From assembly GCA_963843835.1 (NCBI GenBank), contig CAWJMD010000008.1:1036706-1100705 (forward strand): a stretch of 64,000 nucleotides of DNA, given 5' to 3'. The notes beneath the pieces were generated by a model, which did not search any database, was not told the DNA's origin, and saw nothing but the letters and a program-made list of their open reading frames with translations. The position numbers were made by a program, and so were the translations under genes. The stretch's first letter is position 1, and the number at the start of each line of letters is the position of its first letter. Origin of the DNA: an uncultured Actinomycetota bacterium. Lineage in GTDB: Bacteria > Actinomycetota > Actinomycetes > Actinomycetales > CAWJMD01. Of the stretch, positions 18,665 through 33,798 are shown in pieces.

Positions 18665-18668
<4 letters not shown>

Positions 18669-19867: not shown

Positions 19868-19908
19868 GCCGCGATCCTTTCACGGCTGGCCGCCGGGGCC
19901 GGACGCGC

Positions 19909-19943: not shown

Positions 19944-19970
19944 GTGGTCGGGGTGGAAGGGTCGGTTCGG

Positions 19971-20786
19971 TCAGCCGGTGTACTGCCAGAGCAGGACGGT
20001 CTCGCCGAGCGCCACCGTGTACACGGCGTCACCCATCTGGATCGTCACGCCGTCGAGGACGCCGTCGGCGTCCGCGTCCGCGCCCTTGGCCGTGTACTCG
20101 ACCCATGAGCCGGGCGCAGTGGTACCGAGGAACTCGCCCACCGGGAGGTCGGCGACGTCGAACTGCTGCGTATCACTGCGGAGGGTGAAGTCCGCCTCGC
20201 CTGAGACGGCGTCCCCTCCGACCAGCGTGAGGGTGGCGAGCTGCGGGGTCTTGCCGTCCTTGCCGTCCCTGCCGTTGCGCCCGTCCCTGCCGTTGGTGCC
20301 GTCGACACCATCCTTGCCGTCGGTGCCCGGGAGGACGGCGAGTGACCCGCCACCAGCTCCGCCGGTGTAGGCGGAGGAACCGGTGCTGACGGGGGCGGAC
20401 GTGGCTGCGGGCGTCGATGCCGGTGCGGCACCCTCCCCGCCCTCGACCACCAGCGCCGCGAAGGGGTTGCGGCCGTTGAACTCGGTGAGAGTCGGCAGCG
20501 GCGTGGGCGCCTGGGTCGGCGTCGCAACCGGCGAGTCGGACGGGGCGGAACTGGGCGGCGGGGCCGCGACGACATCGTCGACGCTGCTGCCCGACTGGCT
20601 GAAGAAGTACAGGCCGGTACCCACGGCCGCGAGGGCCGCGACCCCGACGAGGCCGATCAGCACGGGTGTCTTCACGGACGAGGTCGCGGGAGCCCCCGGT
20701 CCCGGCGATGAGGGTCCTGCGGCGGAAGAGGACTCCGACGAGGGCGAGGCGAACGGGTTCGGCGTTCCGAACGGGCTGGTGGTCAT
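19971..20786 (-). CDS. PilP-like pilus alignment protein with Pro-rich linker and collagen-type GXY stalk
   Basis: 271 aa with AGGAGA 9 nt upstream of the ATG. Single TM helix PVLIGLVGVAALAAVGTGLYFF, a TEFNGRNPF motif, nine Gly-X-Y triplets and a beta-rich C-domain. Directly follows pilO. Confidence 0.6.
   Translation of the reverse strand: MTTSPFGTPNPFASPSSESSSAAGPSSPGPGAPATSSVKTPVLIGLVGVAALAAVGTGLYFFSQSGSSVDDVVAAPPPSSAPSDSPVATPTQAPTPLPTLTEFNGRNPFAALVVEGGEGAAPASTPAATSAPVSTGSSAYTGGAGGGSLAVLPGTDGKDGVDGTNGRDGRNGRDGKDGKTPQLATLTLVGGDAVSGEADFTLRSDTQQFDVADLPVGEFLGTTAPGSWVEYTAKGADADADGVLDGVTIQMGDAVYTVALGETVLLWQYTG
20247..20327 (-). repeat. Coding 9-bp-periodic repeat that encodes nine collagen-like Gly-X-Y triplets
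   Basis: Protein residues 154-180 are GTD GKD GVD GTN GRD GRN GRD GKD GKT. The plus strand reads cttgccgtc cttgccgtc cctgccgtt gcgcccgtc cctgccgtt ggtgccgtc.... Confidence 0.85.
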
Positions 20787-20811
20787 GGCGTCACGTCTCC
20801 TGGTCGCCGTG

Positions 20812-21555
20812 TCAGTTGGTCGTGGTGTCGACGACGCCGGGTCCGGCGTTGGGCACGGTCACGCCGGGTGCCGCGGACGAAGGGTCCGACACCGGCTTGA
20901 GCACGAAGACGCTTCCGGTGATCGTCATGGTGACGTCGCCGTTCGCGACCGCCGGCTTTCCGCCCTGGGCAGCCTTGGCCTGCTCCTCGGCCACCACGTT
21001 CAGCCCCTGCACGAGGTAGTCCCGCGACAGGGCGGTCTGGACGGCCTTGAGGAAGAGCTTGGCGTTGTAGAAGTTCCCGACCACGACGACGTCCACGGGA
21101 ACCGCCGCGAGCGTGTCCCCACTCGGAGCCGCCACCGGGGCAGCTGCCTCACCCTCGGCGGGGACGGCGGCGGGATCGGGCTGCGGCGCAGGGGCGCCCT
21201 CACCGGCCAGTGCGATGGCCACCGATGGCGTCACCGACATCAGCGTCACACCGTTGGCGGCAGCCTGGGCGTCCAGCTCGCGCACCAGCGTGGGGATCTC
21301 GGGCGACTCCGGCATCGCCTTCTTCACGGCGGCGAGCTCGGCTTGGCGCTGGGGGAGCTCCGCGAACTGCGACTTGAGCTCCTCGATCTCCAGCGTCAGT
21401 GCGGCGTTGGAGGCCTCGGTCGCCGTCGTCTGGTCACGGAGCTCCGCGGCCTCGGCGCGCTTGGGGCCGATCAGCAGCAGCCATGAGGCCACGACGGCCA
21501 GCACGCAGACCGCCGCGGTCGCGGCGACCCACAGCGTGGTCTTCGACAGGGACAT
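20812..21555 (-). CDS. pilO: Type IV pilus assembly protein PilO
   Basis: 247 aa. N-terminal TM helix (LWVAATAAVCVLAVVASWLLL), a coiled-coil (AELRDQTTATEASNAALTLEIEELKSQFAELPQRQAELA), then a ferredoxin-like C-domain. Sits after pilN. Confidence 0.8.
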   Translation of the reverse strand: MSLSKTTLWVAATAAVCVLAVVASWLLLIGPKRAEAAELRDQTTATEASNAALTLEIEELKSQFAELPQRQAELAAVKKAMPESPEIPTLVRELDAQAAANGVTLMSVTPSVAIALAGEGAPAPQPDPAAVPAEGEAAAPVAAPSGDTLAAVPVDVVVVGNFYNAKLFLKAVQTALSRDYLVQGLNVVAEEQAKAAQGGKPAVANGDVTMTITGSVFVLKPVSDPSSAAPGVTVPNAGPGVVDTTTN

Positions 21556-21556
21556 C

Positions 21557-22264
21557 TCAGCCGGCCTCTCGTTCGTAGCGGTTCGACAGGGCGTCGGACG
21601 TCACGACCGCCTGGGTGGTGAAGTCGACGATGACGGTGCCGTCGATCTGGTTTCGCTCCGACTGGCTCAACGACGGGTCGGCGAACCCCTCGGTCCCGGC
21701 GAGGACGTCGAGCCACGCGGACACATCGGAGTGCACCTTGCCGGTGCCGAGGACCGTGATGGTGCCGATACCGGACCGGGTCAGAGGGTCGGCCGGCAGT
21801 CCGGAGGCCGCAGCCGCGCCCGCGGGAGCCCCCACGGTGGCCGTGAGGTCGGTGATCCAGACGTCCTTCGGGTAGGTCAGGGCGAGGTCGTCCAGGTAGG
21901 GGCTCCAGAGGACGTCGGACGCCATGGCGGTCGAGCGGGCGTTCTGGGCCGACTCGACCTGCGCCAGGGTGCGCGGAACCTCGGCGTACTTGCTCGCCTC
22001 GGCATTGAGCGTCACGGTGCGCTTCTGCTCGGTCGCGAGGCCGTCGGCCGCCGAGTCGGCGCCCGCAGAAGCGAGCAGGTAGCCCGCCCCGACCGCGCCA
22101 AGCACTCCGACGACGACGAGCCCGAGGATGGCCTGGGTGCGACGGAGCTGACGCTCCTGCGCGATCTCCGGGGGAAGCAGGTTGACCCGCGGGACGGTGT
22201 ACCCCACGCCGAAGGCGCTACCGAGCTCGACTTCCTCGGTGGCCTTCTCGAAGTTGACGGTCAT
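21557..22264 (-). CDS. pilN: Type IV pilus assembly protein PilN
   Basis: 235 aa with an N-terminal VNLLPPEI motif (PilM-binding INLLP signature), followed by a TM helix (AILGLVVVGVLGAVGAGYLL). ATGA overlap with pilM. Confidence 0.85.
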   Translation of the reverse strand: MTVNFEKATEEVELGSAFGVGYTVPRVNLLPPEIAQERQLRRTQAILGLVVVGVLGAVGAGYLLASAGADSAADGLATEQKRTVTLNAEASKYAEVPRTLAQVESAQNARSTAMASDVLWSPYLDDLALTYPKDVWITDLTATVGAPAGAAAASGLPADPLTRSGIGTITVLGTGKVHSDVSAWLDVLAGTEGFADPSLSQSERNQIDGTVIVDFTTQAVVTSDALSNRYEREAG

Positions 22265-23310
22265 GACTGGGCTCCGAGTGCGAGACCCACCGGCACGGCG
22301 GCCAGGGGCTGGACGAGGGACAGCTGCTGCTCGCTGAGACCGGTCCGCCCGATGCTCATCGTCGACATCGGGTCACCGGCGATGACGTCGAGGCGGGTCG
22401 CCCCGCTGAGCCGCTCGGCCAGGCCCCGCAGGGTCGAGCCGCCGCCGGAGAGCACGAGCCGGCCGATGGGCCAGTCGGGGTTCGAGGCGGCGTAGTAGTC
22501 GAGGGAGCCCCGCACCTCGTCCACGAACGACTGCGCGGTGCCCTCCACGGCGCGTGCGGCGGTGGCGAGCTCGTCACCCGCACCGAGGAGCCCGAGCTGC
22601 TGCTTCAGCCCCTCGGCCTCACCCATCGGCACGCCCAGCCGCTCGGCGACCGAGTCGGTGATGTCCTGTCCACCCATCAGCAGGATGCGGACGAAGCGCG
22701 GCACCCCGGCCGAGTGGACGACGATGTTCGTGACGCGCGAGCCGATGTCGACGAGGGCCTCGGTCTCGACGTCGGCCGACACACGCGTGCCGATCGAGCG
22801 GAGGACCGCGAAGGAGGTCAGGTCGACCATCGTGGTCTGCAGTCCGGCCATCTGGACACAGCGCACGTTGGCCATCACGGTCTCGCGAGCCGCAGCGACC
22901 AGCAGGCCCCGCGTCTGCGCGACACCGTTGACCTGAACGGTCTCCAGCGGGTGGAAGTCGAGGACGGCCTGGTCGACCGGCATCGGCAGGTAGTCCTGCA
23001 CCTGGAAGGGCAGTGCCTTCTTCAGGTCCGCAGGCGGCATCGGGGGCAGGTCCACCTGCCGCACGACGACGCGCTGGTTCGCGACCCCGAGCACGACCTT
23101 CTTGTGGCTGAACTTGGTCGCTGACCACAGCTGCCTGATGGCAGCGGCCACGGTCGGCTGGTCAAGGACCTCGCCGTCGCGTACCGCACCCTCGGGAACG
23201 GCCACCTGACCGAACTTCTCGAGCGTCACTCCGCTCCTGCCGAACGACAGCTCGGCAGCTCGTACGCCTGAGGTCCCGATGTCGAGACCGATGGCGGTTC
23301 GTCCAGCCAC
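22261..23310 (-). CDS. pilM: Type IV pilus assembly ATPase-like protein PilM (actin fold)
   Basis: 349 aa from the GTG at 23310 (GGAAGGGGA upstream): AIGLDIGTSGVRAAEL...ALVDIGSRVTNIVV...LVLSGGGSTLRGLAERL.... Confidence 0.88.
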   Translation of the reverse strand: MAGRTAIGLDIGTSGVRAAELSFGRSGVTLEKFGQVAVPEGAVRDGEVLDQPTVAAAIRQLWSATKFSHKKVVLGVANQRVVVRQVDLPPMPPADLKKALPFQVQDYLPMPVDQAVLDFHPLETVQVNGVAQTRGLLVAAARETVMANVRCVQMAGLQTTMVDLTSFAVLRSIGTRVSADVETEALVDIGSRVTNIVVHSAGVPRFVRILLMGGQDITDSVAERLGVPMGEAEGLKQQLGLLGAGDELATAARAVEGTAQSFVDEVRGSLDYYAASNPDWPIGRLVLSGGGSTLRGLAERLSGATRLDVIAGDPMSTMSIGRTGLSEQQLSLVQPLAAVPVGLALGAQS

Positions 23311-23450
23311 GTCACGTCCCCTTCCGTCGCAGCCCACTTGGGCCGTCAGCCAGTCATCGGGGTGAATCTGCGCCGCCTTGAGCGGCACGGACGGACCAGT
23401 TGGGCCGGTCGAGTGAATCGCCCGTTCGGACTAGCGTCCGCTGGCGGACG

Positions 23451-24242
23451 TCACTGCCAGGACAGGCCGACGAGACCCAGGTACCAGTCGACGAGGTCGT
23501 CCCCGACGACGATCGCCGACGCGGCGCCGGCGAGCATGAAGGGACCGAAGGGGATCAACGACTTGCGGCCGGCCCGACGGACCACCATCAGCCCCGCGCC
23601 GACCAGCCCGCCGAGAAGGAACGCCAGGAAGGCGCCCAGCGGCACGAGCACCCAGCCGAGGAACCCCAGGTACATGCCGAGGACGCCGGCGAGCTTGACG
23701 TCCCCGAAGCCCATGCCCTTCGGGTAGATGAACATCACCACGAAGTAGAAGGCGTAGAGCGCCAGCCCGGCCAACAGCGTGCGCAGGAGCACAGCGGGCT
23801 CACCCTCCAGCAGCGCAGCCCCTCCGAGGAGGAGCGCCGCAACGGGGTAGCTCGGCAGCACGATCGCGTTCGGCAGCCGGTGCACGTCGAGGTCGATGAG
23901 GGCGAGAGCAACGCCCACGGCCGCCAGGTAGAGGAAGGCCGGGAGGTGCCAGACGGCGCCGAAGTACCACGCGGTGAGCCCGAAGAGGATCGCGGTGCCC
24001 AGCTCCACCGCCGGGTACCGAGGGCTGATCGGCTCGCCGCAGTCGCGGCAGCGACCGCGCAGGACGAGCCAGCTCAGCACCGGGACGTTGTCGACGGACC
24101 GGATCCCGACGCCGCACCGCGGGCATGCGCTCGGCGGGCTGACCACCGACTCGCCCCGCGGCACGCGCCAGACCACCACGTTGAGGAAGGACCCGATCGC
24201 CAGCCCGAGAAGGGTCGCGAAGCCGACGAGGAGTGGGGTCAC
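23451..24242 (-). CDS. pilD: Prepilin peptidase PilD (peptidase A24, with N-terminal Zn-finger/methyltransferase-type domain)
   Basis: 263 aa: ...GLAIGSFLNVVVWRVP...CPRCG...CRDCGEPI.... Two catalytic-Asp regions (...LALIDLDVHRLP... and ...GMGFGDVKLAGVLG...). Confidence 0.9.
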   Translation of the reverse strand: MTPLLVGFATLLGLAIGSFLNVVVWRVPRGESVVSPPSACPRCGVGIRSVDNVPVLSWLVLRGRCRDCGEPISPRYPAVELGTAILFGLTAWYFGAVWHLPAFLYLAAVGVALALIDLDVHRLPNAIVLPSYPVAALLLGGAALLEGEPAVLLRTLLAGLALYAFYFVVMFIYPKGMGFGDVKLAGVLGMYLGFLGWVLVPLGAFLAFLLGGLVGAGLMVVRRAGRKSLIPFGPFMLAGAASAIVVGDDLVDWYLGLVGLSWQ

Positions 24243-24262
24243 GAGCGGTCAGGCTAGTCGAC

Positions 24263-26041
24263 CTAGCTGTCCTCCTCGGAGAAGCTCGTGCTCGACCACG
24301 CGTCGTTCTGCAGCTCGAGGAACGAGGGCGGAGGGAGCGCGGTCAGACGCGTGTCGTAGTTGTAGTCCTTGTCGTACCCGGTGCCGCCGCTGGTTCCGAC
24401 CGGGCCCCGGAACTTCTGGACGATCACGCCGTTCACGGTGAGGTTGCCGAGGTTCGTCGATCCGGTGTTGTAGTTCTGCACCGTGAAGCTGTTGGCGACG
24501 GAGGCGATGGCGGCGTCGATCCGCACGTTCACCAGCTTCGTCGACTCGGTCGAGGGGTGGTAGACCTCGACGTTGTTCTGGCCGACGAGGCCCAGGACGT
24601 TCGTGCTCGAGAGCCCGCCGTCGTACACGGTGTTGCCGACCACGATCACGTCGTGGGCGCTCGCGACCGTGTACTTGCCCTTGACCGTTCCCTTGACGAA
24701 GACGTCGCCCCGCATGCAGTCGTAGGTGTCTCCCGTCCCGGTCGTGTACTCGGACACCGGCTCAGCCGAGCCGCATGCCGCTCGATAGTTGGGGTCGCTG
24801 GTCGACGCCGGGACGTCCTGCACGTAGATCACGCCGTTCGCGGGTCCGTTCACGACCGACGCGGTGCTCGGGCTACCGCCGATGCAGCCGGAGTTCGTCA
24901 CCTTCGTGTAGGGGCTCTTGACCTTGAGCTTGCCGCTGCTGAGGAACTCGATGGTGGTCGGGCCGGTGTAGAGGCACCCCGTCCCACCCAGAGAGGCGTC
25001 GGCGAGCCTTCGGATGTTGAGGTTGGTCGGCGGCATCTCGAGCCGCGGCGAGTACTTGGGGAGGTTCGTCAGCGGCGTGTAGGCGTTGTTGACCCAGAGC
25101 TTCGCCGGGTTGGGTGGGTTGCGCACCTGCCCCGTTGTCGCCCAGCTGGTGGTCGTGGGTCCCTTGAAGTTGACGTTGCCGTTGAGGGTCAGGGTGTCGT
25201 TGCTGTGCAGGGGTCCGTTGATCACGTCGCTGCCCGAGAAGTTGATCGTCAGGCAGTCGAAGTAGTACGTGTCCGAACCCCCGCCGCGGATACCGGAGGG
25301 GGGCGTGTCGGACGCCGAGAACCAGACCTCCGCCGTCTTCGTGCCGGACTCGCTCCACTGCACAGTGCGCGGGAACGTGGCACGTCCGTCGTAGTAGTAC
25401 ATCTCGCAGCCGCGGCGAACCTGGTCCGAGGTCGGACGCAGGAGGGTGTAGCTCGTGCTCTTCTTGGCGGCGAACGGGATGATGGAGCCGATGTTGCCGT
25501 TCGACGAGACGGTGAACGAGCGGTTGCCGAGGAACGACAGCTGCGCCGTGCTCACCGGGCTGAACGTCTCGTAGTTGGAGTAGTACAGGAACTTGAGGAA
25601 GGCCGTCTTCGTGAGGTCGGCCACGATCGTGCGCTTGACGCCGTTCACCCGGCCGGTCACCTGCAGACGCACAGCACCGGGTGTCACCGTCGACAGGGGG
25701 TTGGAGAGCACCTTCTGGGTGTACTGCGCGGTGTTGGTCCCCGTGGTACCCGGTACGGTCGCCCAGCCTGTCAGCGCCAGGTTCGGCGTCGAGTCGCCAC
25801 AGGGCACGTCCCAGTATGTGTCACAGGTGTTCAGCCGCGACACGTAGTCCTGAACACCCGCCTGCGCTGCTGCCAGTGCTGCACGGAAGTCCTGTCCTCG
25901 CCGACTCTGGGTCACGGTGTTGAGGGCGTAGCCCATCGACGCGAGCGCCAGACCCGAGACCAGCAGGAAGGCCAGCAGCACGGCCACCATCGTGTAGCCC
26001 TCGTCGTCGCCCCGTCGTGCCGTGAAGCGCTGAACCACCAT
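24263..26041 (-). CDS. Large PilX-like minor pilin / putative pilus-tip protein
   Basis: 592 aa from the ATG at 26041 (1-nt overlap with the upstream stop). PilX_N-like head: RRGDDEG|YTMVAVLLAFLLVSGLALASMGYALNTVTQSRRGQDFRAALAAAQAGVQDY, with no Glu at +5. The remaining ~530 aa are Asn/Thr/Ser/Tyr/Gly-rich, beta-type, with several Cys pairs. Confidence 0.7.
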   Translation of the reverse strand: MVVQRFTARRGDDEGYTMVAVLLAFLLVSGLALASMGYALNTVTQSRRGQDFRAALAAAQAGVQDYVSRLNTCDTYWDVPCGDSTPNLALTGWATVPGTTGTNTAQYTQKVLSNPLSTVTPGAVRLQVTGRVNGVKRTIVADLTKTAFLKFLYYSNYETFSPVSTAQLSFLGNRSFTVSSNGNIGSIIPFAAKKSTSYTLLRPTSDQVRRGCEMYYYDGRATFPRTVQWSESGTKTAEVWFSASDTPPSGIRGGGSDTYYFDCLTINFSGSDVINGPLHSNDTLTLNGNVNFKGPTTTSWATTGQVRNPPNPAKLWVNNAYTPLTNLPKYSPRLEMPPTNLNIRRLADASLGGTGCLYTGPTTIEFLSSGKLKVKSPYTKVTNSGCIGGSPSTASVVNGPANGVIYVQDVPASTSDPNYRAACGSAEPVSEYTTGTGDTYDCMRGDVFVKGTVKGKYTVASAHDVIVVGNTVYDGGLSSTNVLGLVGQNNVEVYHPSTESTKLVNVRIDAAIASVANSFTVQNYNTGSTNLGNLTVNGVIVQKFRGPVGTSGGTGYDKDYNYDTRLTALPPPSFLELQNDAWSSTSFSEEDS

Positions 26042-26799
26042 CAGTTGCTCCTTGAGGTGATGTTGATGAACGTGACTCGAGCCACCGTGGAAGGGTTCTT
26101 GGACGTGTCCTGCGTCCGAAGGGCCGCTGTCATCCAGATCTCCACGCTCTCGACCAGCGGGATGTCGCCCGCAGCGACGTTTCCGGAGCCGTCCACCGGG
26201 ACCGTGCTGACTGAGGAGCCGTCCGCGTTGAGTGTCGCGTCGGTGCGCTTGAGGTAGGTGAAGAACGAGTGCGGCGGCGTCGCGGAGAGTCCCCGGGCGA
26301 CCACCTGGCACGTGCGTGCTGCGCCGGGGCTCTGCGCGCCCGCGGGGAACGTGATGTTCGCGCCGACCAGCGTGCCCCGGTAGACCTGCTGGCACAGCTC
26401 GCGCTTGCCGTCCGCCGACGCCCGGGTCCACAGCCAGATGACCGAAGGCATCTGCGTCTGGGAGCCGGCGTTCGCGGCGGTCAGGTCGAGGGTGTCCAGC
26501 TTGGCGTAGAAGCCGATGCGCTGAGGCTCGGCGACGATGATGGCCGGGACGTTGCCGTCGTACGAGTCGGCGGTGCGCAGCTGCTTGGTCATCCGGTCGG
26601 CCGCGATGCGAAGCTCGTTGACGGCCTGGTTGCGCTGGTTGGCGGCGTCCGACGTCCGCGCCCCCGAGATCACCATCGCCGACACGCTCGCCAGCAGGAG
26701 CGTGCTGATCACCATGCCGACGAGGAGCTCGACGACGCTCATGCCGCGGTCGTCGGCGCGCCAGCCGGCACGCACCAGCCGGGCGATCCGGCGGGTCAC
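26041..26799 (-). CDS. PilW-like minor pilin (prepilin-type N-terminal cleavage/methylation domain)
   Basis: 252 aa from the GTG at 26799 (GTGA overlap). Leader ...WRADDRG|MSVVELLVGMVISTLLLASVSAMV with Glu at +5. Confidence 0.75.
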   Translation of the reverse strand: MTRRIARLVRAGWRADDRGMSVVELLVGMVISTLLLASVSAMVISGARTSDAANQRNQAVNELRIAADRMTKQLRTADSYDGNVPAIIVAEPQRIGFYAKLDTLDLTAANAGSQTQMPSVIWLWTRASADGKRELCQQVYRGTLVGANITFPAGAQSPGAARTCQVVARGLSATPPHSFFTYLKRTDATLNADGSSVSTVPVDGSGNVAAGDIPLVESVEIWMTAALRTQDTSKNPSTVARVTFINITSRSN

Positions 26800-28106
26800 C
26801 AGTTCACCGTCGCCGAGGCGGTGCGAGACGTGTCGCTCACGGTGAAGGTCTCGGTCTTGGAGGTCGGCGTACCCGAGACGGTGACCGTCACCGTGGCGTT
26901 CCACGTGCCGTACGGGACCTGCACGGCGAAGTCAGTGCCTCCACCGTTGAGCAGGACCAGGTTCTCGGCGACCAGGAGCGAGTCGCCGCCGGAGCAGAGG
27001 GCGTCCGCGGCCCGTTCGAGGGTGACCGTCGCAGTGCTGACCGGACCCCCACCGGACTTCTTCACCTTGAGGTTCACTCCCCCGACGGGGAGGTTGACGG
27101 GGGTGGTACCCCCGGGGGTCGGGGAGACCGACACCTTCCCCCCCGACGCGGGCAGGCAGCGACCCGCCGACAACCCGTACCCGGCCCCGGCCCAGGGGAA
27201 CACCGGCGACATGGCACCACTCGGCAGGAGGCACCCGGACGTCACCACCGGACTGCAGTACGGGTTGAACACCGTCTGCCCCAGGAGGCTGCGCTCGACC
27301 TGCACGCCGTGGCCCGAGATCGGGAGCTGGTAGCCACCACCGGGCGGGGACCACGCCATCGTCAAGGCGGACGCCTGGTCGTACATGAGGCTGGCCGGCT
27401 TCGCGATGCGCCCCGCGACGACGGTCGCAGCCGTCGTCGACACGCTCTGCGCGTTGGTGATGCCGACGTAGCCGATCGTGTCGACCGAGGCGCTGTAGGT
27501 ACCGGGGGCGAGGCTCGTGAAGACCGCGCACCCGTTCTTGTCACTCACGGCGGTCGCGCCCGTCGGACTGAGGGTGACGTTGATGCCCTGCAGGGCAACG
27601 GAGTTGCGGTCGACGACGGGCACCGCGAAGGCACCGAGGTTCCCGTTCACCTGGCCGATGGGCACGGCGAGGACCGTGTCGCTCTGGACCGGGGTGACCG
27701 ATCCCATCCTGGGCCATGTCACCAGGACGGAGATCTTCTTGTAGGCCAGGCGCGCGCCGTCGGGGGCGCTGCAGCTGCTGGTGGTCGACGTACCGGGCAG
27801 GAGGGAGATCGTGCGGGTGACCGTGAAGGCGTCGCCGTTGACGGACAAGGGCGTGGCGACCGTGCCGGGAAGCAGCGCGTCGTACCCGAGACCGAGGCTC
27901 ACCTCCTTCTCGCGCTCAGCCAGGTTCGCGGCGGTTGCTCGCATCCTCCCCTCGCCGGTGAGGGCGAGCGTGCGGATCAGCACCCCGCCCGCCGCAGCCG
28001 CGACGAGGGCGAGGACGACGAGCGACGCCAGCACCTCGACGATCGTGAAGCCGTCCTCGTTGCCTGCCAGCTCGCGGCCGTGGCGTCGACGCAAGGCGCT
28101 CAGCAC
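26796..28106 (-). CDS. PilV-like minor pilin with extra Ig/CarboxypepD_reg-like beta domains
   Basis: 436 aa from the GTG at 28106 (GGGAG upstream). Leader ...LAGNEDG|FTIVEVLASLVVLALVAAAAGGVL with Glu at +5. The internal segment VVDRNSVALQGINVTLSPTGATAVSDKNGCAVFTSLAPGTYSASV resembles carboxypeptidase-regulatory-like folds. Confidence 0.72.
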   Translation of the reverse strand: MLSALRRRHGRELAGNEDGFTIVEVLASLVVLALVAAAAGGVLIRTLALTGEGRMRATAANLAEREKEVSLGLGYDALLPGTVATPLSVNGDAFTVTRTISLLPGTSTTSSCSAPDGARLAYKKISVLVTWPRMGSVTPVQSDTVLAVPIGQVNGNLGAFAVPVVDRNSVALQGINVTLSPTGATAVSDKNGCAVFTSLAPGTYSASVDTIGYVGITNAQSVSTTAATVVAGRIAKPASLMYDQASALTMAWSPPGGGYQLPISGHGVQVERSLLGQTVFNPYCSPVVTSGCLLPSGAMSPVFPWAGAGYGLSAGRCLPASGGKVSVSPTPGGTTPVNLPVGGVNLKVKKSGGGPVSTATVTLERAADALCSGGDSLLVAENLVLLNGGGTDFAVQVPYGTWNATVTVTVSGTPTSKTETFTVSDTSRTASATVNW

Positions 28107-28265
28107 GATGGGTCTCCCGGAAGTCGGTCCGTGGGCTCCAGTGCGGGCCCTCGGGTTGGTATCGGCGGTGGCGCCGCGTCCTTGAGGCGTGAGGTGGGCC
28201 CATCCGGGAGCGGGTCCCTGTTTCCCTCTAACGGGTGCGCGCCATGCGGGATCCGAGCAACGGAA

Positions 28266-28292
28266 CGCCCCCCGGCCATCGGCCGGGGGGCG
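28266..28292 (-). terminator. Strong hairpin downstream of the major pilin gene
   Basis: CGCCCCCCGGCC-atc-GGCCGGGGGGCG, a 12-bp all-GC perfect stem, 22 nt after the pilin stop at 28315. Confidence 0.65.
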
Positions 28293-28314
28293 CTCGGTCA
28301 CTGCTCTCAGATCA

Positions 28315-28725
28315 TCACGGGGTGGCGGTCAGCACACCGGCTGCGCAGGTGCCCTTCTTGACACCAGCGTCGGCGCTGCTGGCGGCCCACTTGTCGCCCG
28401 ACTTCGACGTCACCTGCACGCAGTACGCGTTCTTGGCGGCGTTCACCGTGTAGGTGTGACCCGTCGCGGTCGAGCTGACCTTGTACTCGGACGCAGCGAG
28501 GGCGGCCGGGTACTCCTGGGTGTCGGTGAAGTTCGTCTCGACCGCGATCTGCATGTTGCGCGCGTCGGACTTGGCCTGGCCGTCGTAGCCCTTGTTGCGC
28601 TGGTTCAGGAAGGTCGGGATCGCGATGGCCGCGAGGATGCCGATGATGACGATGACGACGAGGAGCTCGATCAGGGTGAAGCCCTGGTCCTTCTCCTCCA
28701 TGGACTTACGGATGCGAGCGAGCAT
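28315..28725 (-). CDS. pilA: Type IV major pilin (paralog 1)
   Basis: 136 aa. Class III signal peptide MLARIRKSMEEKDQG|FTLIELLVVIVIIGILAAIAIPTFLNQ. C-terminal Cys pair (..YCVQV...KKGTCAAG) forms a disulfide loop. Has its own 212-bp upstream region and its own terminator. Confidence 0.9.
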   Translation of the reverse strand: MLARIRKSMEEKDQGFTLIELLVVIVIIGILAAIAIPTFLNQRNKGYDGQAKSDARNMQIAVETNFTDTQEYPAALAASEYKVSSTATGHTYTVNAAKNAYCVQVTSKSGDKWAASSADAGVKKGTCAAGVLTATP

Positions 28726-28882
28726 GTGCGCTCCCCTTCGATTCGGTCTCGGTGAGCCGCCCGCTGCAGGGTCTCCGGCTCGATGACTCCTGAGATATCG
28801 GGCTCGCCCGGAGGCACCTTGAGATCTGGGGTGAAGATTCTCGGTCGCCCTGCTCCGATCGAGCGACGCCGCTCACAGATGC

Positions 28883-28914
28883 GTGAGGGCCTGCCGCGGA
28901 CGGCAGGCCCTCAC
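28883..28914 (-). terminator. Hairpin downstream of pilin paralog 2
   Basis: GTGAGGGCCTGCCG-cgga-CGGCAGGCCCTCAC, a 14-bp perfect stem, 24 nt after the stop at 28938. Confidence 0.65.
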
Positions 28915-28937
28915 GATGCTGCGCACACTCGACGGGA

Positions 28938-29330
28938 CTACCCCGTCGGGTTGCTGCATGCACCCGGTGCGGTCGCGACCCCGGCGGCACCACTGGTCGC
29001 CTTCCAGACGGCGCCGGACCGTGACCGGACCGACACGCAGTACGACGAGCTCGAGCCGAAGTAGACAGCGGGACTGGTGGTCTCGGACTTCAGGTAGGTC
29101 GGGATGCTCCCGGTCGGCGGATAGCCCTGGACCTCGTGGAACTCGGCCTCGATCGCCGTCTGGAGGTTGCGGGCGTCGCTCTTCGCCTGGGCGTCGAACC
29201 CCTCGTCGCGTTGTGCCAGGTACGCGGGGATCGCGATCGCCGCGAGTACGCCGATGATCGACACGACCACGAGCAGCTCGATCAGCGTGAAGCCACGCTC
29301 GGCAGCACGCGTGCGGGATGCGATGCGCAT
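28938..29330 (-). CDS. Type IV pilin (paralog 2)
   Basis: 130 aa from the ATG at 29330 (GGAGAG upstream): MRIASRTRAAERG|FTLIELLVVVSIIGVLAAIAIPAYLAQRDEGFDAQAKSDARNLQ.... C-terminal Cys pair (..YCVSV...PGACSNP). The listed ORF start at 29375 would give an atypically long leader. Confidence 0.85.
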   Translation of the reverse strand: MRIASRTRAAERGFTLIELLVVVSIIGVLAAIAIPAYLAQRDEGFDAQAKSDARNLQTAIEAEFHEVQGYPPTGSIPTYLKSETTSPAVYFGSSSSYCVSVRSRSGAVWKATSGAAGVATAPGACSNPTG

Positions 29331-29371
29331 GGTTCGGTCACTCTCCGTCGCGGGACGTTGTGGCGCCCCGG

Positions 29372-30595
29372 TCACTGGATCAGGTCGAAGACCTTGAAGA
29401 TGGGCATGTAGAGGGCGATGATCATCGACCCGATCATGGCGCCGAGCACGGCGATCATCAGCGGCTCGATCAGGCTCGTCAGCGCCTCGGTGGTCGACTC
29501 GACCTCCTGGTCGTAGAAGTCTGCAAGCTTGCCGAGCATCGTGTCCATCGCGCCGGTGTCCTCACCCACGGCGAGCATCTGCACCATCATCGCCGGGAAG
29601 ACCTTGTGGTCGGCCAGGGGGCCGGCCAACGAGTCGCCCTTGCGGACGCTCTCCTGGACGTCCCTCGCGGCACGCTCGAGAACGAGGTTGCCGCTGGTCT
29701 CGCCGACGATCTCGAGGCTCTGCAGGATCGGGACCCCTGAACGGATCATCGTCCCGAGGTTGCGTGCGAAGCGGGCCAGGGCGACCTTCGCGAACAGGTT
29801 GCCGAAGACGGGGATCTTCAGCTTCATCGGGTCGATGACGCTGCGCACCTTGTGCTGGTGCTTGACCCGGCCCCACACCACGGAGAAGGCGACGAGCAGC
29901 ACGAGGCCGATCGGTGCGGCGACCTTCATCACGCCGCTGAGGAAGACGAGCGCCTTCGTCGGAGCGGGGAGCTCGCCTCCAAGGCTGTCGAACATGCCTG
30001 CGAAGACGGGCACGATGAAGAGGAGCATGCCGACCACGGCGATGATCGCCATCACGAAGACGACGACCGGGTAGGTCATCGCCGACTTGATCTTGCTGCG
30101 GAGCTTGACCTCGGCCTCGAAGTTCTCGGCCACCGACAGCAGGGTCGTGTCGAGGAAGCCGCCGACCTCGCCCGCCCGGCACATGTTGATCATGATCGGC
30201 GGGAAGACGCGTGGGAACTTCGCGAGCGAGTTCGACAGCGAGCCACCGGACTCCACCTCGTTGCGCACCGAGGTCAGGGCCTCCTTCAGCCCCTTGCTCT
30301 CGGTCTGCTCGGCCAGGATCGAGAGCGAGCGCAGCATCGACAGACCCGAGTTGATCATCGTGGCGAACTGTCGCGACATGACCGCGAGGTCCTTGAGCTT
30401 GACGCGGTTGCTGCCCGGGAGGGTGATCTCCTTGCTCATGCCGGAGCCCTGCTCGCGCACCGACATCGGCGCGTAGCCCATGTGCTTCAGCTTGGTGACG
30501 AGCGCCGCCTCGTTGGGGGCGTCGAGCTTGCCGGTGACGAGCTTGCCCGAGCGGTCGCGGACGGAGTACTCGTAGGTCTTGGTGGCGGTTGCCAT
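29372..30595 (-). CDS. pilC: Type IV pilus platform protein PilC (T2SS F family)
   Basis: 407 aa from the ATG at 30595 (GAGGGAG upstream). Two T2SSF repeats and three TM segments: ...FATMINSGLSMLRSL... / ...NLGTMIRSGVPILQSL.... Confidence 0.9.
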   Translation of the reverse strand: MATATKTYEYSVRDRSGKLVTGKLDAPNEAALVTKLKHMGYAPMSVREQGSGMSKEITLPGSNRVKLKDLAVMSRQFATMINSGLSMLRSLSILAEQTESKGLKEALTSVRNEVESGGSLSNSLAKFPRVFPPIMINMCRAGEVGGFLDTTLLSVAENFEAEVKLRSKIKSAMTYPVVVFVMAIIAVVGMLLFIVPVFAGMFDSLGGELPAPTKALVFLSGVMKVAAPIGLVLLVAFSVVWGRVKHQHKVRSVIDPMKLKIPVFGNLFAKVALARFARNLGTMIRSGVPILQSLEIVGETSGNLVLERAARDVQESVRKGDSLAGPLADHKVFPAMMVQMLAVGEDTGAMDTMLGKLADFYDQEVESTTEALTSLIEPLMIAVLGAMIGSMIIALYMPIFKVFDLIQ

Positions 30596-30606
30596 CGTGC
30601 GCTCCC

Positions 30607-31890
30607 TCAGGCCCGGCCGGTCAGGCGGTTGAAGTCCTCGACGTGGTGGCACTTCTCGAGGCCCTGCTCGTAGCTGATGCGGTTCGTTCGCACGAGATCG
30701 GCCAGGTGCTGGTCCATCGTGTGCATGCCGTGCTGCGCCCCGGCCTGCATGGCCGAGTAGATCTGGTGGGTCTTGCCCTCGCGGATGAGGTTGCGCACCG
30801 CGGCGGTCGCCTGCAGGACCTCGGTGGCGACGACCCGCCCGCGCCCGTCCGCCGTCTTGCACAGCGTCTGGCAGACGACACCCTGCAGCGAGCCGGCGAG
30901 CATGACGCGGACCTGCTGCTGCTGCTCGGGCGGGAAGACGTCGATCACGCGGTCGATGGTCTGCGCCGCGTCCTGCGTGTGCAGGGTCGCGAACACGAGG
31001 TGCCCGGTCTCAGCGGCGGTCAGGGCCACCGAGATGGTCTCGAGGTCACGCATCTCGCCGACCAGGATGATGTCGGGGTCCTGGCGCAGGACGTGCTTCA
31101 GCGCGTTGGCGAAGGACTTGGTGTCCTCCCCCACCTCTCGCTGGTTGATCAGGCAGCTCTTGTGACGGTGCAGGAACTCGATGGGGTCCTCGACCGTCAT
31201 GATGTGGCCGTGCCGGGTGCGGTTGGCCAGGTCGATGAGGGACGCCAGCGTCGTCGACTTGCCGGAGCCGGTCGGGCCGGTGACCAGGACCATGCCGCGG
31301 GGCAGGCCGGCGAAGTTGCTGACGGTCGGCGGGATGCCGAGGTCCTCCAGCGGCTTGATCTCGTAGGGGATCACCCGGAACGCGGCGCCGATGGACTCAC
31401 GCTGGCGGTAGATGTTGACGCGGAACCGCGAGCGGCCCGGCAGGGAGTAGGCGAGGTCGAGCTCGAGCTCGGACTCGAACTTCTCGCGCTGCTTCTGGGT
31501 GAGGATCGCGTAGATCACGCGCTGCAGCGCCATCCGCTCCATGATCGGCTGCTCGTCCAGGGGCTGGAGCTCTCCACGGAGGCGCAGCATCGGGTGCGCC
31601 CCGCTGCTGAGGTGGAGGTCGGAGGCGCCCCGCTCGAGCATCTCTATCAGCAGGTCGCTGAGGACGAAGTCGCCCTCCTCGACCTGCGCCTCGGTCGTCT
31701 GGCGGCCCAGCACCTGCGGCTTCTTGGCCGTCGCGACCCCCGGTGGGGGCTGCGTCGGCGGGAGGGGTGCGGTCGCCGCGTGCGCGCCGGGGGGCGCCGT
31801 CGTCGAGGCGGTGGGGGCGGTCGGGGTGTCGCCGCGGAAGGCGAACGCCTCCGGCGAGTAGCCCTGCTGGTTCGGCTGGCCGCTGCTCAC
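30607..31890 (-). CDS. pilT: Type IV pilus retraction ATPase PilT with Pro/Thr/Ala-rich N-terminal extension
   Basis: Walker A GPTGSGKSTT, Asp box, Walker B ILVGEMRD, and a PilT-specific AAVRNLIREGK helix. Start assigned to the GTG at 31890 (GAGGGGAG 5 nt upstream). Codons from 31891 to 32001 are rich in AGA/AGG/TCA/CGA and look non-coding. Confidence 0.85.
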   Translation of the reverse strand: MSSGQPNQQGYSPEAFAFRGDTPTAPTASTTAPPGAHAATAPLPPTQPPPGVATAKKPQVLGRQTTEAQVEEGDFVLSDLLIEMLERGASDLHLSSGAHPMLRLRGELQPLDEQPIMERMALQRVIYAILTQKQREKFESELELDLAYSLPGRSRFRVNIYRQRESIGAAFRVIPYEIKPLEDLGIPPTVSNFAGLPRGMVLVTGPTGSGKSTTLASLIDLANRTRHGHIMTVEDPIEFLHRHKSCLINQREVGEDTKSFANALKHVLRQDPDIILVGEMRDLETISVALTAAETGHLVFATLHTQDAAQTIDRVIDVFPPEQQQQVRVMLAGSLQGVVCQTLCKTADGRGRVVATEVLQATAAVRNLIREGKTHQIYSAMQAGAQHGMHTMDQHLADLVRTNRISYEQGLEKCHHVEDFNRLTGRA

Positions 31891-32016
31891 GGCGCTCCCC
31901 TCATCGGTTGTCCTGTCGTACACGCCTCGTCGAGGTCTGCTGGCTCTCCTGCTCATCGGCCCGTCCAGGCCCACCCTTGAGGCGTCGTGTGAGAGCGCCA
32001 CGAGCGCTACCGTGCG

Positions 32017-33693
32017 TCACGCGACGACGCGGAGGATCTCCTCGATCGAGGTCACACCGCCCATGACCTTGGCCCAGCCGTCGTTGCGCAGGGAGACCAT
32101 CCCCTGGGCGGCGGCGGTCTTCTCGATCTCGGCGGCCGAGGCGCGGGAGACGGCCAGGCGCTCGATCTCCTCGCTGACGGTCATCACCTCGTGCAGCGCC
32201 AGTCGTCCCTTGTACCCCGTGCGCGAGCAGGAGGAGCACCCGACGGGACGGAACAGCGTGGGCACCGACTCGCCAGGAGCCCAGGGGAACCGCGCGCCGG
32301 TGAGCTCGGCCTCGCTCGGCTCGTACTCCTCCTTGCACTTGGGACACAGTCGCCGGGCGAGCCGCTGGGCCAGCACGCTGTCGAGGGCGGACCCGACCAG
32401 GAAGGGCTCGATGCCCATCTCGGTCAGACGCGTGATCGCCGACGGCGCGTCGTTGGTGTGGAGGGTCGACAGCACGAGGTGTCCGGTCAGCGAGGCCTCG
32501 ATCGCGATCTGGGCCGTCTCGTGGTCACGGATCTCACCGATCAGCACCACGTCGGGGTCGGACCGCAGGATCGAGCGCAGGGCGGACGAGAAGGTCAGGC
32601 CGGCCTTGGGGTTGACCTGGACCTGGTTGATGCCCGGGAGCCGGTACTCGACCGGGTCCTCGACCGTGATCACGTTGATCTCGGGCTTGGACACGATGTT
32701 GAGCGTCGCGTACAGAGTGGTCGACTTGCCGGAGCCGGTCGGACCGGTCACCAGGATCATCCCGTAGGGCTTGATGTAGCTCGTCCGGTAGCGCTCGAAG
32801 TTGCTCTCGGAGAAGCCGAGGTCGGCCAGGTCGAGCCGCGCCGTCGAGTTGTCGAGCACACGCATGACGACCTTCTCGCCCCACACCGTCGGCAGGGTCG
32901 CCACGCGCAGGTCGATCTTCTTGCCGTTCGTCGTGACCGAGAGCCGGCCGTCCTGGGGGATGCGGCGCTCGGCGATGTCGATGTCCGACATGATCTTGAG
33001 CCGGGACACCACGCCGCCGGCGATCTGCTTGGGCGAGCGCATCACCTCGTGCAGCACGCCGTCGATGCGGTAGCGGACGCGGAGCTCGTGCTCGGCCGGC
33101 TCGATGTGGATGTCGGACGCACGGTCCTGGATCGCCTGCGTGATGAGCAGGTTCACGTACTTGACGATCGGGGCGTCCTCGACGATCTCGGTGAGCTGAC
33201 TGAGGTCATCGTCCTCGTCCGCGTCCGTCATCGCCGTGGTCAGGTCGTCGAGCTCGCCGTCGGCACGGCAGAACCGGTCGATGGCGGCCAGCAGGTCGTC
33301 GCGCGTGGCGACGACCGGGCGCACGTCGAGTCCGGTGATCTGGCGGACGTCATCGAGCGCGAAGACGTTGCCCGGGTCGGCCATCGCCAGCACGAGCTTG
33401 CCCTCGTCGTAGCCCACCGGCAGCACGGTGTGACGCCGGCAGACGGCGGCCGACACGCGGGCCACGGCCGAGCCGTCGACAGATGCCTCGGCGAGGTCGA
33501 TGAAGTCCAGGCCGATCTGCTCGGAGAGTGCCGCCACCAGCTGCGACTCGGTGAGGAGCCCCTGCTCGACGAGCACACGCCCCAGCGGCCGCCCCTCCTG
33601 CTCGTGGACGTCGAACGCCGCGACCAGCTGTTCCTCGGTGACGAGCCCGTCCTCGAGCAGGATGTCGACGAACTGGCGCACACCTGTGGTCAT
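32017..33693 (-). CDS. pilB: Type IV pilus assembly ATPase PilB (GspE family)
   Basis: 558 aa. N-terminal T2SSE_N/MshEN-like domain, Walker A GPTGSGKSTT, Walker B VLIGEIRD, and tetracysteine CPKC...CSSC. Confidence 0.93.
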   Translation of the reverse strand: MTTGVRQFVDILLEDGLVTEEQLVAAFDVHEQEGRPLGRVLVEQGLLTESQLVAALSEQIGLDFIDLAEASVDGSAVARVSAAVCRRHTVLPVGYDEGKLVLAMADPGNVFALDDVRQITGLDVRPVVATRDDLLAAIDRFCRADGELDDLTTAMTDADEDDDLSQLTEIVEDAPIVKYVNLLITQAIQDRASDIHIEPAEHELRVRYRIDGVLHEVMRSPKQIAGGVVSRLKIMSDIDIAERRIPQDGRLSVTTNGKKIDLRVATLPTVWGEKVVMRVLDNSTARLDLADLGFSESNFERYRTSYIKPYGMILVTGPTGSGKSTTLYATLNIVSKPEINVITVEDPVEYRLPGINQVQVNPKAGLTFSSALRSILRSDPDVVLIGEIRDHETAQIAIEASLTGHLVLSTLHTNDAPSAITRLTEMGIEPFLVGSALDSVLAQRLARRLCPKCKEEYEPSEAELTGARFPWAPGESVPTLFRPVGCSSCSRTGYKGRLALHEVMTVSEEIERLAVSRASAAEIEKTAAAQGMVSLRNDGWAKVMGGVTSIEEILRVVA

Positions 33694-33798
33694 CGTCGTC
33701 CTCTCGCGGCAGACAGGTCATCCCGAGGCGCCCGTACAGGGGCCACGGCTCAGCATCGGTCGGACCGGGCCCCGGCTTGAACGCGGACGCCGAAGCGG

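Follow-up and report, generated by a model that had tools for sequence, protein, structure and literature searches.

The type IVa pili (T4aP) of the diderm bacteria Pseudomonas aeruginosa and Myxococcus xanthus comprise PilB, PilT, PilC and PilD together with PilMNOPQ and the FimU-PilVWXE proteins, and monoderm T4aP have been described in the Firmicutes Streptococcus sanguinis, Clostridium perfringens and C. difficile (PMC6916266). T4aP have also been listed in Actinobacteria (Denise et al. 2019, PMC6668835), and the type IV pili of the zoospores of Actinoplanes missouriensis are reported to be required for adhesion (Kimura 2019, as cited in PMC12871210). Here, we analyzed a 64-kb stretch of DNA (contig CAWJMD010000008.1, 72% GC; hereafter the window) from an uncultured Actinomycetota bacterium, in which 13 minus-strand genes fill positions 19971-33693 between aroC and aroE. 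Judging from their sequences, we consider it very probable that these genes encode a functional, vertically inherited and retractile monoderm T4aP, expressed from sigma-28 (WhiG/FliA)-type promoters, whose output is most likely surface adhesion or twitching. The kind of system is known: T4aP of Actinobacteria have been catalogued (PMC6668835, PMC6916266) and a related Actinoplanes cluster has been studied. An initial annotation of the stretch, made from its sequence alone, had called T4aP essentially unstudied in Actinomycetota; this is partly outdated in view of the work on Actinoplanes and Rubrobacter (PMC12871210) and of the catalogue (PMC6668835), and it stands in that very few species have been studied.

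Comparison with these systems places the locus as follows. Firstly, the loci of Actinoplanes and Paractinoplanes, which belong to the same phylum, share the order pilB-pilT-pilC-pilA-pilD-pilM-pilN-pilO, their PilB, PilT and PilD proteins are 56-58%, 58-60% and 57-60% identical to those of the window, and control by a sigma factor of the sigma-28 family has been reported there (PMC12871210). However, the stretches of these genomes that we fetched contain no minor-pilin cassette between pilA and pilD and no aroE or aroC flanks, no homologue of the protein encoded by the thirteenth gene (OrfZ) was detected, and A. missouriensis is a sporangium-forming actinomycete with flagellated zoospores. Secondly, the T4aP of the Firmicutes (PMC6916266) resemble the locus in having clustered genes without a secretin, in possessing PilB, PilT, PilC, PilD and PilMNO, in their large modular minor pilins and in the presence of two major-pilin-like paralogues (compare PilE1 and PilE2 of S. 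sanguinis). They belong to another phylum, however, and the locus differs in its pilin leaders of 13-15 residues, in the extra OrfZ after PilO, in its sigma-28-type promoters, and in a tip pilin that is ComZ-like rather than a modular pilin with a von Willebrand factor A or lectin domain. Thirdly, the diderm T4aP share the same core families, the best models being Myxococcus PilC and PilA, PilB and PilT, and the N-terminal motif of PilN is present. In contrast to diderm systems, the locus has three dedicated minor pilins instead of four or five, all its genes lie at one place, it has no PilY1, and no PilQ, PilP, TsaP or PilF was detected in the cluster or among the scanned open reading frames (ORFs) of the window. 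These family scans took in most ORFs of the window, with exceptions such as a 717-aa ORF (53196-55349, minus strand) between the cyclophilin gene and relA, and they revealed no secretin, integrase, transposase or further pilus gene, which agrees with the description of the cluster as secretin-less and fitting a monoderm envelope. Since the absence of PilQ, PilP, TsaP and PilF is expected in monoderm T4aP (PMC6668835, PMC6916266), it does not exclude membership of this class.

The core assembly machine

The gene map bears out the 13 co-directional genes initially placed between aroC and aroE. Gene starts were refined from in-frame GC content at third codon positions (GC3), Shine-Dalgarno sequences and orthologue lengths, and the true starts of pilT, pilC, pilA1, the three minor-pilin genes and pilM lie downstream of the ORF starts. 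All 13 ORFs are intact, their GC3 (0.88-0.97) equals that of the neighbouring housekeeping genes, and within operons the pil genes abut or overlap. The genes and their flanks, in the direction of transcription, are:

33799-34641, minus strand: aroE, shikimate dehydrogenase, the upstream flank (profile match)
32017-33693, minus strand: pilB, extension ATPase, 558 aa (T2SSE, MshEN)
30607-31890, minus strand: pilT, retraction ATPase, 427 aa (TIGR01420)
29372-30595, minus strand: pilC, inner-membrane platform, 407 aa (two T2SSF domains)
28938-29330, minus strand: pilA1, second type IVa pilin paralogue, 130 aa (N_methyl)
28315-28725, minus strand: pilA2, probable major pilin, 136 aa (N_methyl)
26796-28106, minus strand: mpV, modular minor pilin, 436 aa (N_methyl)
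26041-26799, minus strand: mpW, minor pilin, 252 aa (prepilin motif; N_methyl below cut-off)
24263-26041, minus strand: mpX, large tip-type minor pilin, 592 aa (homologues with PilX_N; ComZ-like fold model)
23451-24242, minus strand: pilD, prepilin peptidase/N-methyltransferase, 263 aa (A24_N_bact, Peptidase_A24)
22261-23310, minus strand: pilM, actin-like cytoplasmic alignment protein, 349 aa (PilM_2, TIGR01175)
21557-22264, minus strand: pilN, 235 aa (PilN family)
20812-21555, minus strand: pilO, 247 aa (PilO family)
19971-20786, minus strand: orfZ, lineage-restricted fourth gene of the pilMNO operon, 271 aa (architecture and position)
18665-19867, minus strand: aroC, chorismate synthase, the downstream flank (profile match, 6e-113)

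Families were assigned by Pfam and NCBIfam profile searches in which bit scores were compared with model cut-offs, and these profiles support the PilB, PilT, PilC, PilD, PilM, PilN and PilO assignments that had been proposed from the sequence, with PilB lying just under the cut-off of its best model. PilB consists of an N-terminal MshEN domain (1e-23), which also matches the model NF053729 for an MshE-type domain binding cyclic di-GMP (c-di-GMP) at 56 bits (cut-off 38), followed by a T2SSE domain (3e-144), and it has the Walker A motif GPTGSGKS and a tetracysteine motif of the zinc-binding type (CPKC...CSSC). Its top-scoring model is TIGR02538, and its closest relatives in the PDB are the PilB/PilF proteins of Geobacter, Thermus and Myxococcus, with Geobacter PilB as the best match (5e-164, compared with 3e-128 for GspE). 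PilT scores 490 bits against TIGR01420 (cut-off 319), carries the AVRNLIRE signature and is closer to G. metallireducens PilT (1e-122) than to PilU (3e-80), the match spanning residues 78-417. Residues 1-77 form an extension rich in proline, alanine and threonine that none of the solved PilT proteins has; it is conserved in the clade, as shown by the equal total length (426 aa) of the orthologues in the three nearest relatives, the close metagenome-derived contigs L001-L003. The single platform protein PilC contains two T2SSF stretches (2e-64) and scores 398 and 392 bits against PilC models, compared with 344 for GspF and 146 for ComGB. PilD matches A24_N_bact (7e-35) and Peptidase_A24 (3e-12), and its CxxC...CxxC motif and the aspartates D117/D119 and D181 occupy invariant columns of the alignment.

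The alignment proteins are likewise recognizable. PilM matches PilM_2 (3e-48) and scores 204 bits against TIGR01175 (cut-off 133); PilN, whose gene overlaps the pilM stop codon, belongs to the PilN family (7e-9) and starts with VNLLPPEI, the type of motif that is bound by PilM; and PilO matches the PilO family (2e-8, 34.9 bits, cut-off 22). The two pilin paralogues that had been noticed from the sequence are also real by profile. Both have the prepilin site G|FTLIELLVV, preceded by ...AAERG in PilA1 (N_methyl 1e-8) and ...EKDQG in PilA2 (N_methyl 6e-10), and a pair of C-terminal cysteines, and they are 48% identical to each other. PilA2 matches Geobacter PilA (1e-16) and, over its full length, the Thermus wide-pilus pilin PilA 6XXD (3e-11), and by its sequence it is probably the major pilin. 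The gene pilA1 starts 41 nt after pilC without a promoter motif of its own, and it is absent from L001-L003, which have a single pilin gene each. The pilins thus combine a short leader, G-1, F+1, E+5 and a C-terminal cysteine/disulphide region, as type IVa pilins do, and the machine combines a PilB-type ATPase, PilT, a single PilC with two T2SSF domains, an A24 peptidase with an N-terminal methyltransferase/zinc domain, and PilMNO, as T4aP do.

A different possibility, already raised in the initial annotation, is that these genes specify a pseudopilus, that is, a Com-like or type II secretion-like machine that makes no surface fibre and, as a short piston, would serve either secretion or the transfer of DNA across the wall. 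The N-termini of the pilins do match the GspG and GspH models as well, and mpX-type proteins resemble the tip subunits GspK and ComZ (PMC6561018). Nevertheless, we regard this as very improbable. The ComGA (263 bits, cut-off 300), ComGB (146, 240), ComGC (27-31, 75), GspE (608, 630), GspF (344, 424) and GspG (45-51, 89) models all fall short of their cut-offs and score lower than the PilB and PilC models, and among solved structures PilT and PilB proteins come closest. GspC, GspD, GspL and GspM were not found, whereas a PilT-family ATPase and PilMNO are present. Furthermore, the full length of PilA2 can be aligned with a Thermus pilin that forms fibres, and visible pili have been reported for the related Actinoplanes clusters (Kimura 2019, via PMC12871210).

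With assembly steps taken from family membership, the retractile T4aP that we favour would work as follows. PilD would cleave the prepilins after the glycine of G|F(T)xxE and N-methylate them, and a cytoplasmic PilB hexamer would drive the PilC platform to polymerize the pilins, PilA2 probably as the major pilin and PilA1 as a second paralogue, with a complex of the three minor pilins as the primer. PilM would bind the N-terminus of PilN, which together with PilO and the bitopic OrfZ would form a membrane alignment module; no secretin would be needed because there is no outer membrane. PilT would depolymerize the fibre and so make it retractile, and the MshEN-type domain of PilB suggests that c-di-GMP probably tunes the extension step.

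Candidate sigma-28-type promoters and transcription units

The published WhiG/FliA consensus reads T(A/C)AA or CTCA at -35, N16-17, and GCCGA at -10 (PMC12871210). Scanning with this consensus, allowing one mismatch, gave sites within 200 nt of the start codons of pilB, pilT, pilA2, mpV and pilM. For a refined motif, TCAAG-N14-16-CCGAT, a search of both strands of the window gave exactly five sites, all of them on the coding strand and 47-73 nt upstream of these same five genes. By chance 0.06 occurrences are expected and none of 100 shuffled sequences reached five, an estimate that is optimistic because the motif was sharpened after the first matches. The sites are:

33755-33780, minus strand: sigma-28 (WhiG/FliA)-type motif TCAAG-N16-CCGAT, 62 nt upstream of pilB
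31955-31980, minus strand: sigma-28-type motif, 65 nt upstream of pilT
28797-28822, minus strand: sigma-28-type motif, 72 nt upstream of pilA2
28161-28185, minus strand: sigma-28-type motif, 55 nt upstream of mpV
23356-23381, minus strand: sigma-28-type motif, 46 nt upstream of pilM, with the widest conservation among the five sites

In relatives both boxes are invariant while the spacers differ, a pattern that points to purifying selection. The motif precedes pilM in 13 loci, those of Kineococcus, Cellulomonas, Actinotalea, Nocardioides and Acidothermaceae among them, pilA in seven, pilT in five to seven and pilB in three to five. Across the 1.39 Mb of fetched loci there are 60 matches on the strand of the cluster against three on the opposite strand, part of the former being conserved coding sequence and hence false positives as promoters. 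One of these false positives lies inside pilD (TCAAGCCCTACGACAAC...CCGAT), another in a conserved stretch that lies downstream of the cluster in Microbacteriaceae (TCAAGAACCGCGG...CAGCCGAT). Such matches were seen in L006 (351-375), L050 (198-222) and L062 (10140-10164) and, at about 15-19 kb, in L010, L014, L021, L026-L028, L032, L038 and L044. Two other scans were discarded: a strict WhiG pattern (TAAA-N13-18-CCGATA) gave no match and was replaced by the consensus of PMC12871210, and a sigma-70 promoter scan gave none either, while T-tailed terminator-like matches were not above chance, both being uninformative at 72% GC.

Three hairpins accompany the candidate promoters:

28882-28915, minus strand: perfect 15-bp hairpin after pilA1, likely terminator or attenuator (z-score -4.1)
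28263-28295, minus strand: hairpin with a 15-bp stem after pilA2, likely terminator (z-score -3.1)
19908-19944, minus strand: hairpin with a 16-bp stem after orfZ, at the end of the pilus cluster before aroC (z-score -4.05; none of 200 shuffled sequences folds as well)

Both pilin hairpins sit just upstream of the next promoter motif. The suggestion that strong hairpins divide the cluster into at least four transcription units holds for those after pilA1, pilA2 and orfZ, and not for pilB: the hairpin at its 3' end was rejected as a terminator, as it folds no better than shuffled sequence. The hairpins at the 3' end of pilD were also set aside, their folding being moderate (z-score -2.2) and one of them (23370-23388) overlapping the -35 box of the pilM promoter. 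The units appear better defined by the five conserved sigma-28-type promoters than by hairpins alone, and, reading from motifs and hairpins together, the most economical arrangement would be five units, pilB, pilT-pilC-pilA1, pilA2, mpV-mpW-mpX-pilD and pilM-pilN-pilO-orfZ, each read from a sigma-28-type promoter, with hairpins after both pilin genes and after the last gene.

WhiG-family control of type IV pilus genes has been reported in Rubrobacter and Actinoplanes and predicted in Cellulomonadaceae, Sanguibacteraceae, Jonesiaceae and Cryptosporangiaceae (PMC12871210). The locus resembles these regulons in that type IV pilus clusters are among their reported or predicted targets and in that its five sites, (C)TCAAG-N14-16-(G/C)CCGAT, resemble the published consensus. 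It differs in that every transcription unit of the cluster has a site, and in that the nearest named relatives of this genome are Kineosporiales rather than the families named there. The presence of WhiG-type promoters together with a c-di-GMP-binding domain in PilB suggests that c-di-GMP may act at two levels.

The window also contains a gene for a BldD-family regulator (14715-15386, plus strand), with a helix-turn-helix and a BldD-like C-terminal domain, which is divergent from pyrR and lies within the same conserved block. In Streptomyces, BldD is a master regulator that responds to c-di-GMP. That the gene lies close to a pilus cluster which probably responds to c-di-GMP is likely coincidental synteny.

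The aroE-aroC junction and the exchangeable cassette

The 13 genes interrupt a block of shikimate genes, and the initial annotation saw in them an old island inserted into this block. Comparison of the junction across relatives, which it had proposed as a check, does not support a lineage-specific insertion and instead revealed junctions with either the full cluster or pilD alone. The contigs L001-L003 have the identical order aroE-pilBTC-pilin-minor pilins-pilD-pilMNO-orfZ-aroC-aroK-aroB-aroQ-efp-nusB, and the order in L084 matches over the portion that its contig covers, from the middle of mpV to nusB. The nearest named relatives by PilD are Angustibacter and Thalassiella (Kineosporiales) and Cellulomonas; the five proteins of the window that were looked up are singletons. 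We then surveyed the phylum by searching species-representative genomes with a PilD profile and mapping the loci with tblastn; the results that follow hold among the matches listed. The order pilBTC-pilA-(minor pilins)-pilD-pilMNO is found in Micrococcales, Kineosporiales, Micromonosporaceae, Acidothermaceae and Frankiales, and one or both of the flanking genes, aroE and aroC, also border the cluster in Cellulomonas-like genera, Actinotalea, Kineococcus and Sanguibacter, as well as in Acidimicrobiia (L048, L056) and Thermoleophilia (L050, L060, L062, L073). In two loci the junction has the form alaS-ruvX-mltG-aroE-pilD-aroC, with pilD abutting aroE and aroC directly in L061 and about 1.2 kb between aroE and pilD in L074.

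Horizontal acquisition of the whole cluster by this lineage, inserted into the shikimate block, therefore appears extremely unlikely to us. It is true that type IV filament systems are often horizontally transferred (Denise et al., PMC6668835), that the genes interrupt aroE-aroC, and that the total GC content drops to 0.66-0.70 in the cluster from 0.72-0.75 in the flanks. However, the GC dip was rejected as a sign of foreign origin, as GC3 is uniform and indistinguishable from that of neighbouring genes; the dip is due to amino-acid composition. The gene order and the flanks are shared with relatives and with members of three Actinomycetota classes, and the nucleotide collinearity with L001 is continuous through both junctions. 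In agreement with what had been noted from the sequence, there are no integrase or transposase genes among the scanned ORFs and the repeat search found no flanking direct repeats; neither were tRNAs or Rfam elements found at the cluster as island borders. The shared synteny, the matching GC3 and the lack of mobility features indicate that the cluster, as far as gene order and composition tell, is an ancient occupant of the aroE-aroC junction and not a lineage-specific insertion, and perhaps it is ancestral to the phylum.

Another possibility is that the cluster is a silent or decaying relic of which only pilD remains useful, for the processing of Tad/Flp pilins. The pilD-only junctions of L074 and L061 and the apparent lack of pilB at the locus of Kineococcus vitellinus would fit such decay. 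In the window, however, 13 of 13 ORFs are intact with a high GC3, identity to the nearest relative is 85-97% for the core proteins, and drift affects the spacers of the promoters and not their conserved boxes, as expected under purifying selection, so that we see very little chance of this being the case.

Some details of these loci deserve mention. L061, in which the order continues to aroK, is labelled 'uncultured Burkholderiales bacterium', whereas L074 is an Actinomycetota metagenome-assembled genome (MAG); either the taxonomic label of the L061 bin may be wrong or the gene order may extend beyond the phylum. In K. vitellinus (L009, 816-2737) only about 1.1 kb separates aroE from pilT, without a PilB match there, and pilT, pilC, the pilins, pilD, pilMNO and sigma-28-type motifs are kept.

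In contrast to the conserved core, one segment of the cluster is variable:

24258-29373, no strand: exchangeable cassette of 5.1 kb with pilA1, pilA2, mpV, mpW and mpX, its limits coinciding exactly with the stop of pilC and the start of pilD

Proteins outside the cassette are highly similar between the window and its nearest relative L001 (aroC 94%, PilB 97%, PilM 95% and PilD 85% identity), whereas mpV and mpX are only 27% and 34% identical and mpW has no match. For the more distant L084 the values are 84% for aroC, 77% for PilM and 73% for PilD (PilB lies outside its contig) and 57%, 62% and 75% for mpV, mpW and mpX. At the nucleotide level, blastn shows 88% identity with L001 in collinear sequence from aroE to the pilC stop (34443 to 29374), and the collinearity sets in again immediately ahead of the start of pilD, at 81% identity (24257 to 17039). 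Within the cassette the L001 matches are the pilA2 promoter and the N-terminal half of pilA2, besides 68 nt at the pilA1 N-terminus and a weak match (69%) near the 3' end of mpX, whereas L084 is collinear through the cassette. There are two pilin genes here and one in the nearest relatives. Since collinearity is lost only between the pilC stop and the pilD start, this segment is an exchangeable module; by these comparisons only the 5.1-kb pilin/minor-pilin segment behaves as mobile, being apparently swapped between lineages. Replaceable pilin and minor-pilin alleles are known from the pilin island of P. aeruginosa.

The other scanned genes of the window are housekeeping genes: gmk, pyr and car genes, bldD, efp, aroQ, aroB and aroK, and further mltG, ruvX, alaS, rarA, aspS, hisS, relA, secDF, yajC and ruvB. 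Two insertions in relatives are absent from the window, an AbiEii/AbiEi toxin-antitoxin pair between aroB and aroQ in L002 and L003 (17173-18600) and a Fic-domain gene between aroB and efp in L084 (10392-11588), which shows that the block tolerates insertions, just not at the pil locus. The mltG/YceG gene contains four to five tandem 15-nt repeats (35830-35904) that encode an acidic, histidine-rich sequence (HALDEHGVDEH...) in the cytoplasmic N-terminal tail of the protein.

Tip pilin, OrfZ and the output of the pilus

The three cassette proteins other than the pilins have been described as PilV-, PilW- and PilX-like. The generic prepilin motif is present in mpV (...NEDG|FTIVE) and mpW (...DDRG|MSVVE), both of which keep G-1 and E+5, and the names PilV and PilW are not justifiable at the family level. 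mpV matches N_methyl (6e-5, 23.0 bits, cut-off 21.2) and contains a prealbumin/CarboxypepD_reg-like beta-sandwich module (CarboxypepD_reg 4e-6, under its cut-off), whereas mpW, the start of which overlaps the mpV stop by 4 nt, stays below the N_methyl cut-off (19.1 bits against 21.2) and weakly matches the pseudopilin HpsC. mpX itself has no family match, although many of its 346 homologues in Actinomycetota carry PilX_N or DUF4900, which is as far as the PilX-like label can be retained. Its site, ...DDEG|YTMVA, is devoid of Glu5. The absence of Glu5 is a hallmark of GspK-type tip subunits.

Searches of the PDB with the sequences of mpX and mpV gave no matches, and the link between mpX and ComZ came only from the predicted structure. 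The AlphaFold2 model of mpX, built from an alignment of 40 sequences (predicted local distance difference test (pLDDT) 87, predicted template-modelling score 0.82), shows a large beta-rich domain preceded by a long helix at the N-terminus. Foldseek found significant PDB matches only to three chains of Thermus thermophilus ComZ 6QVI (E 2.7e-5 to 3e-4, probability 0.99-1.00), the next match having an E of 0.5; the global template-modelling score (TM-score) is 0.26-0.30 and the identity 12%. ComZ is a Thermus tip pilin with a beta-solenoid domain, which binds DNA and is needed for transformation, not for piliation (PMC6561018). In the model, mpX resembles it in its pilin-type N-terminal helix and large beta-rich domain, and, as for ComZ, its gene neighbours those of other minor pilins and of the major pilin; it differs in the low similarity just given and in that Thermus is a diderm with a secretin. 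The likeness probably reflects a shared architecture and distant homology, and the low TM-score and identity mean that DNA binding by mpX is not implied. Within the minor-pilin complex, the Glu5-less ComZ/GspK-like mpX would cap the tip.

This likeness makes DNA capture at the tip a real second possibility, and it raises the question of whether the pilus primarily serves DNA uptake, with mpX binding DNA and PilT-driven retraction feeding ComEA/ComEC encoded elsewhere in the genome. Such a function, which would be compatible with the T4aP assignment, would be consistent with ComZ being the sole significant fold match of mpX, with ComZ being a DNA-binding protein essential for Thermus transformation and dispensable for piliation (PMC6561018), with the lack of Glu5, as expected of a tip subunit, and with the presence of PilT. 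On the other hand, the global similarity between mpX and ComZ is low, and comEA, comEC and dprA are absent among the scanned window ORFs. Moreover, adhesion is the function of the one related actinobacterial system for which a phenotype has been reported (Kimura 2019, via PMC12871210), and the swapping of the mpX cassette is easier to reconcile with an adhesin or receptor of variable specificity than with a DNA receptor that is conserved. We therefore consider DNA uptake as the primary role unlikely, if worth keeping in mind, and adhesion or twitching the most likely output of the pilus.

The thirteenth gene, orfZ, had been taken for a fourth, PilP-like alignment protein. A PilP assignment was rejected, as neither Pfam (E up to 10, with OrfZ and six homologues), NCBIfam nor a PDB profile search gave a match and Foldseek found nothing at E < 0.08 for the OrfZ model (pLDDT of about 78 in the C-terminal beta domain). 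OrfZ resembles PilP (PF04351) only in its position after pilO, its membrane anchor and an R[ND]PF motif. Its position and layout nevertheless make a fourth protein of the alignment module a reasonable idea. The family is rare, with about seven matches among 5.8 billion proteins in a word-indexed search and 21 matches of the N-terminal module among 1.84 billion representatives in an exhaustive HMMER search. Its members consist of an invariant MTTSPFGTP, one transmembrane helix, an invariant (G/S)RNPF(A) and a low-complexity linker, followed by a spacer and a beta domain of about 90 residues. The spacer is collagen-like (G-X-Y) in most members, a heptad-like coiled coil in P0128, P0275 and L084, and proline-rich in P0273; OrfZ of this cluster has the motif GRNPFAA and about nine collagen-like G-X-Y triplets. 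In distant loci, including that of an Acidimicrobiaceae MAG, a bitopic protein encoded after pilO has R[ND]PF at about 90 residues from its N-terminus, and one such protein with RDPF, P0277, is a weak member of the OrfZ family.

The interchangeable rigid spacers suggest that OrfZ may be a stalk or ruler that extends into the wall. More speculatively, OrfZ and its relatives may be a previously unrecognized structural component of actinobacterial T4aP, a membrane-anchored and probably trimeric stalk; taken as a whole, we think this proposal rather doubtful. According to it, a collagen-like triple helix or a coiled coil could interchangeably serve as a rigid rod that projects the small beta domain into the thick cell wall, and the protein could take over the role of PilP-PilQ by guiding or gating the fibre through the peptidoglycan, with RNPF docking on PilN/PilO and the cytoplasmic MTTSPFGTP on PilM or on PilB/PilC. 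If this were true, OrfZ and the phylum-wide aroE-pil-aroC synteny would be the hallmarks of an ancestral 'actinobacterial-type' T4aP.

In L002 (12721-14253), pilO and orfZ were called as one ORF of 510 aa, and in the near-identical L003 they are separate (245 and 265 aa). The fusion is probably a frameshift or an assembly difference, not real.

Several points count against our view of the locus as a functional, regulated T4aP and have to be set beside the evidence for it. PilB, with 663 bits, falls just short of the TIGR02538 equivalog cut-off of 676, and the agreement between mpX and ComZ is low. There are three dedicated minor pilins, compared with a core of four (GspH/I/J/K-like) in model T4aP systems, although PilA1 might serve as the fourth. 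Any role of OrfZ in pilus alignment is putative and suggested solely by its position and architecture. Finally, the chance estimate for the refined promoter motif is optimistic, and the gene of the cognate sigma factor is not in the 64-kb window.

Compared with the first reading of this DNA, the phylum-wide aroE/aroC address, the five sigma-28-type promoters, the ComZ-like tip pilin, the bounded cassette and the OrfZ family are new. T4aP of Actinomycetota are widely predicted and have been studied experimentally in very few species, and the locus offers a compact, fully parsed reference with all core parts in one place. The aroE-pil-aroC address, with pilD alone in reduced lineages, provides a simple marker by which genomes can be screened for where the system was gained or lost. 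The candidate sigma-28 promoters would tie pilus production to the WhiG and c-di-GMP circuitry of the phylum, the ComZ-like tip pilin raises the possibility of pilus-mediated DNA uptake in actinobacteria, and the rare membrane protein with its collagen-like or coiled-coil spacer may serve specifically the passage of a pilus through a thick wall.

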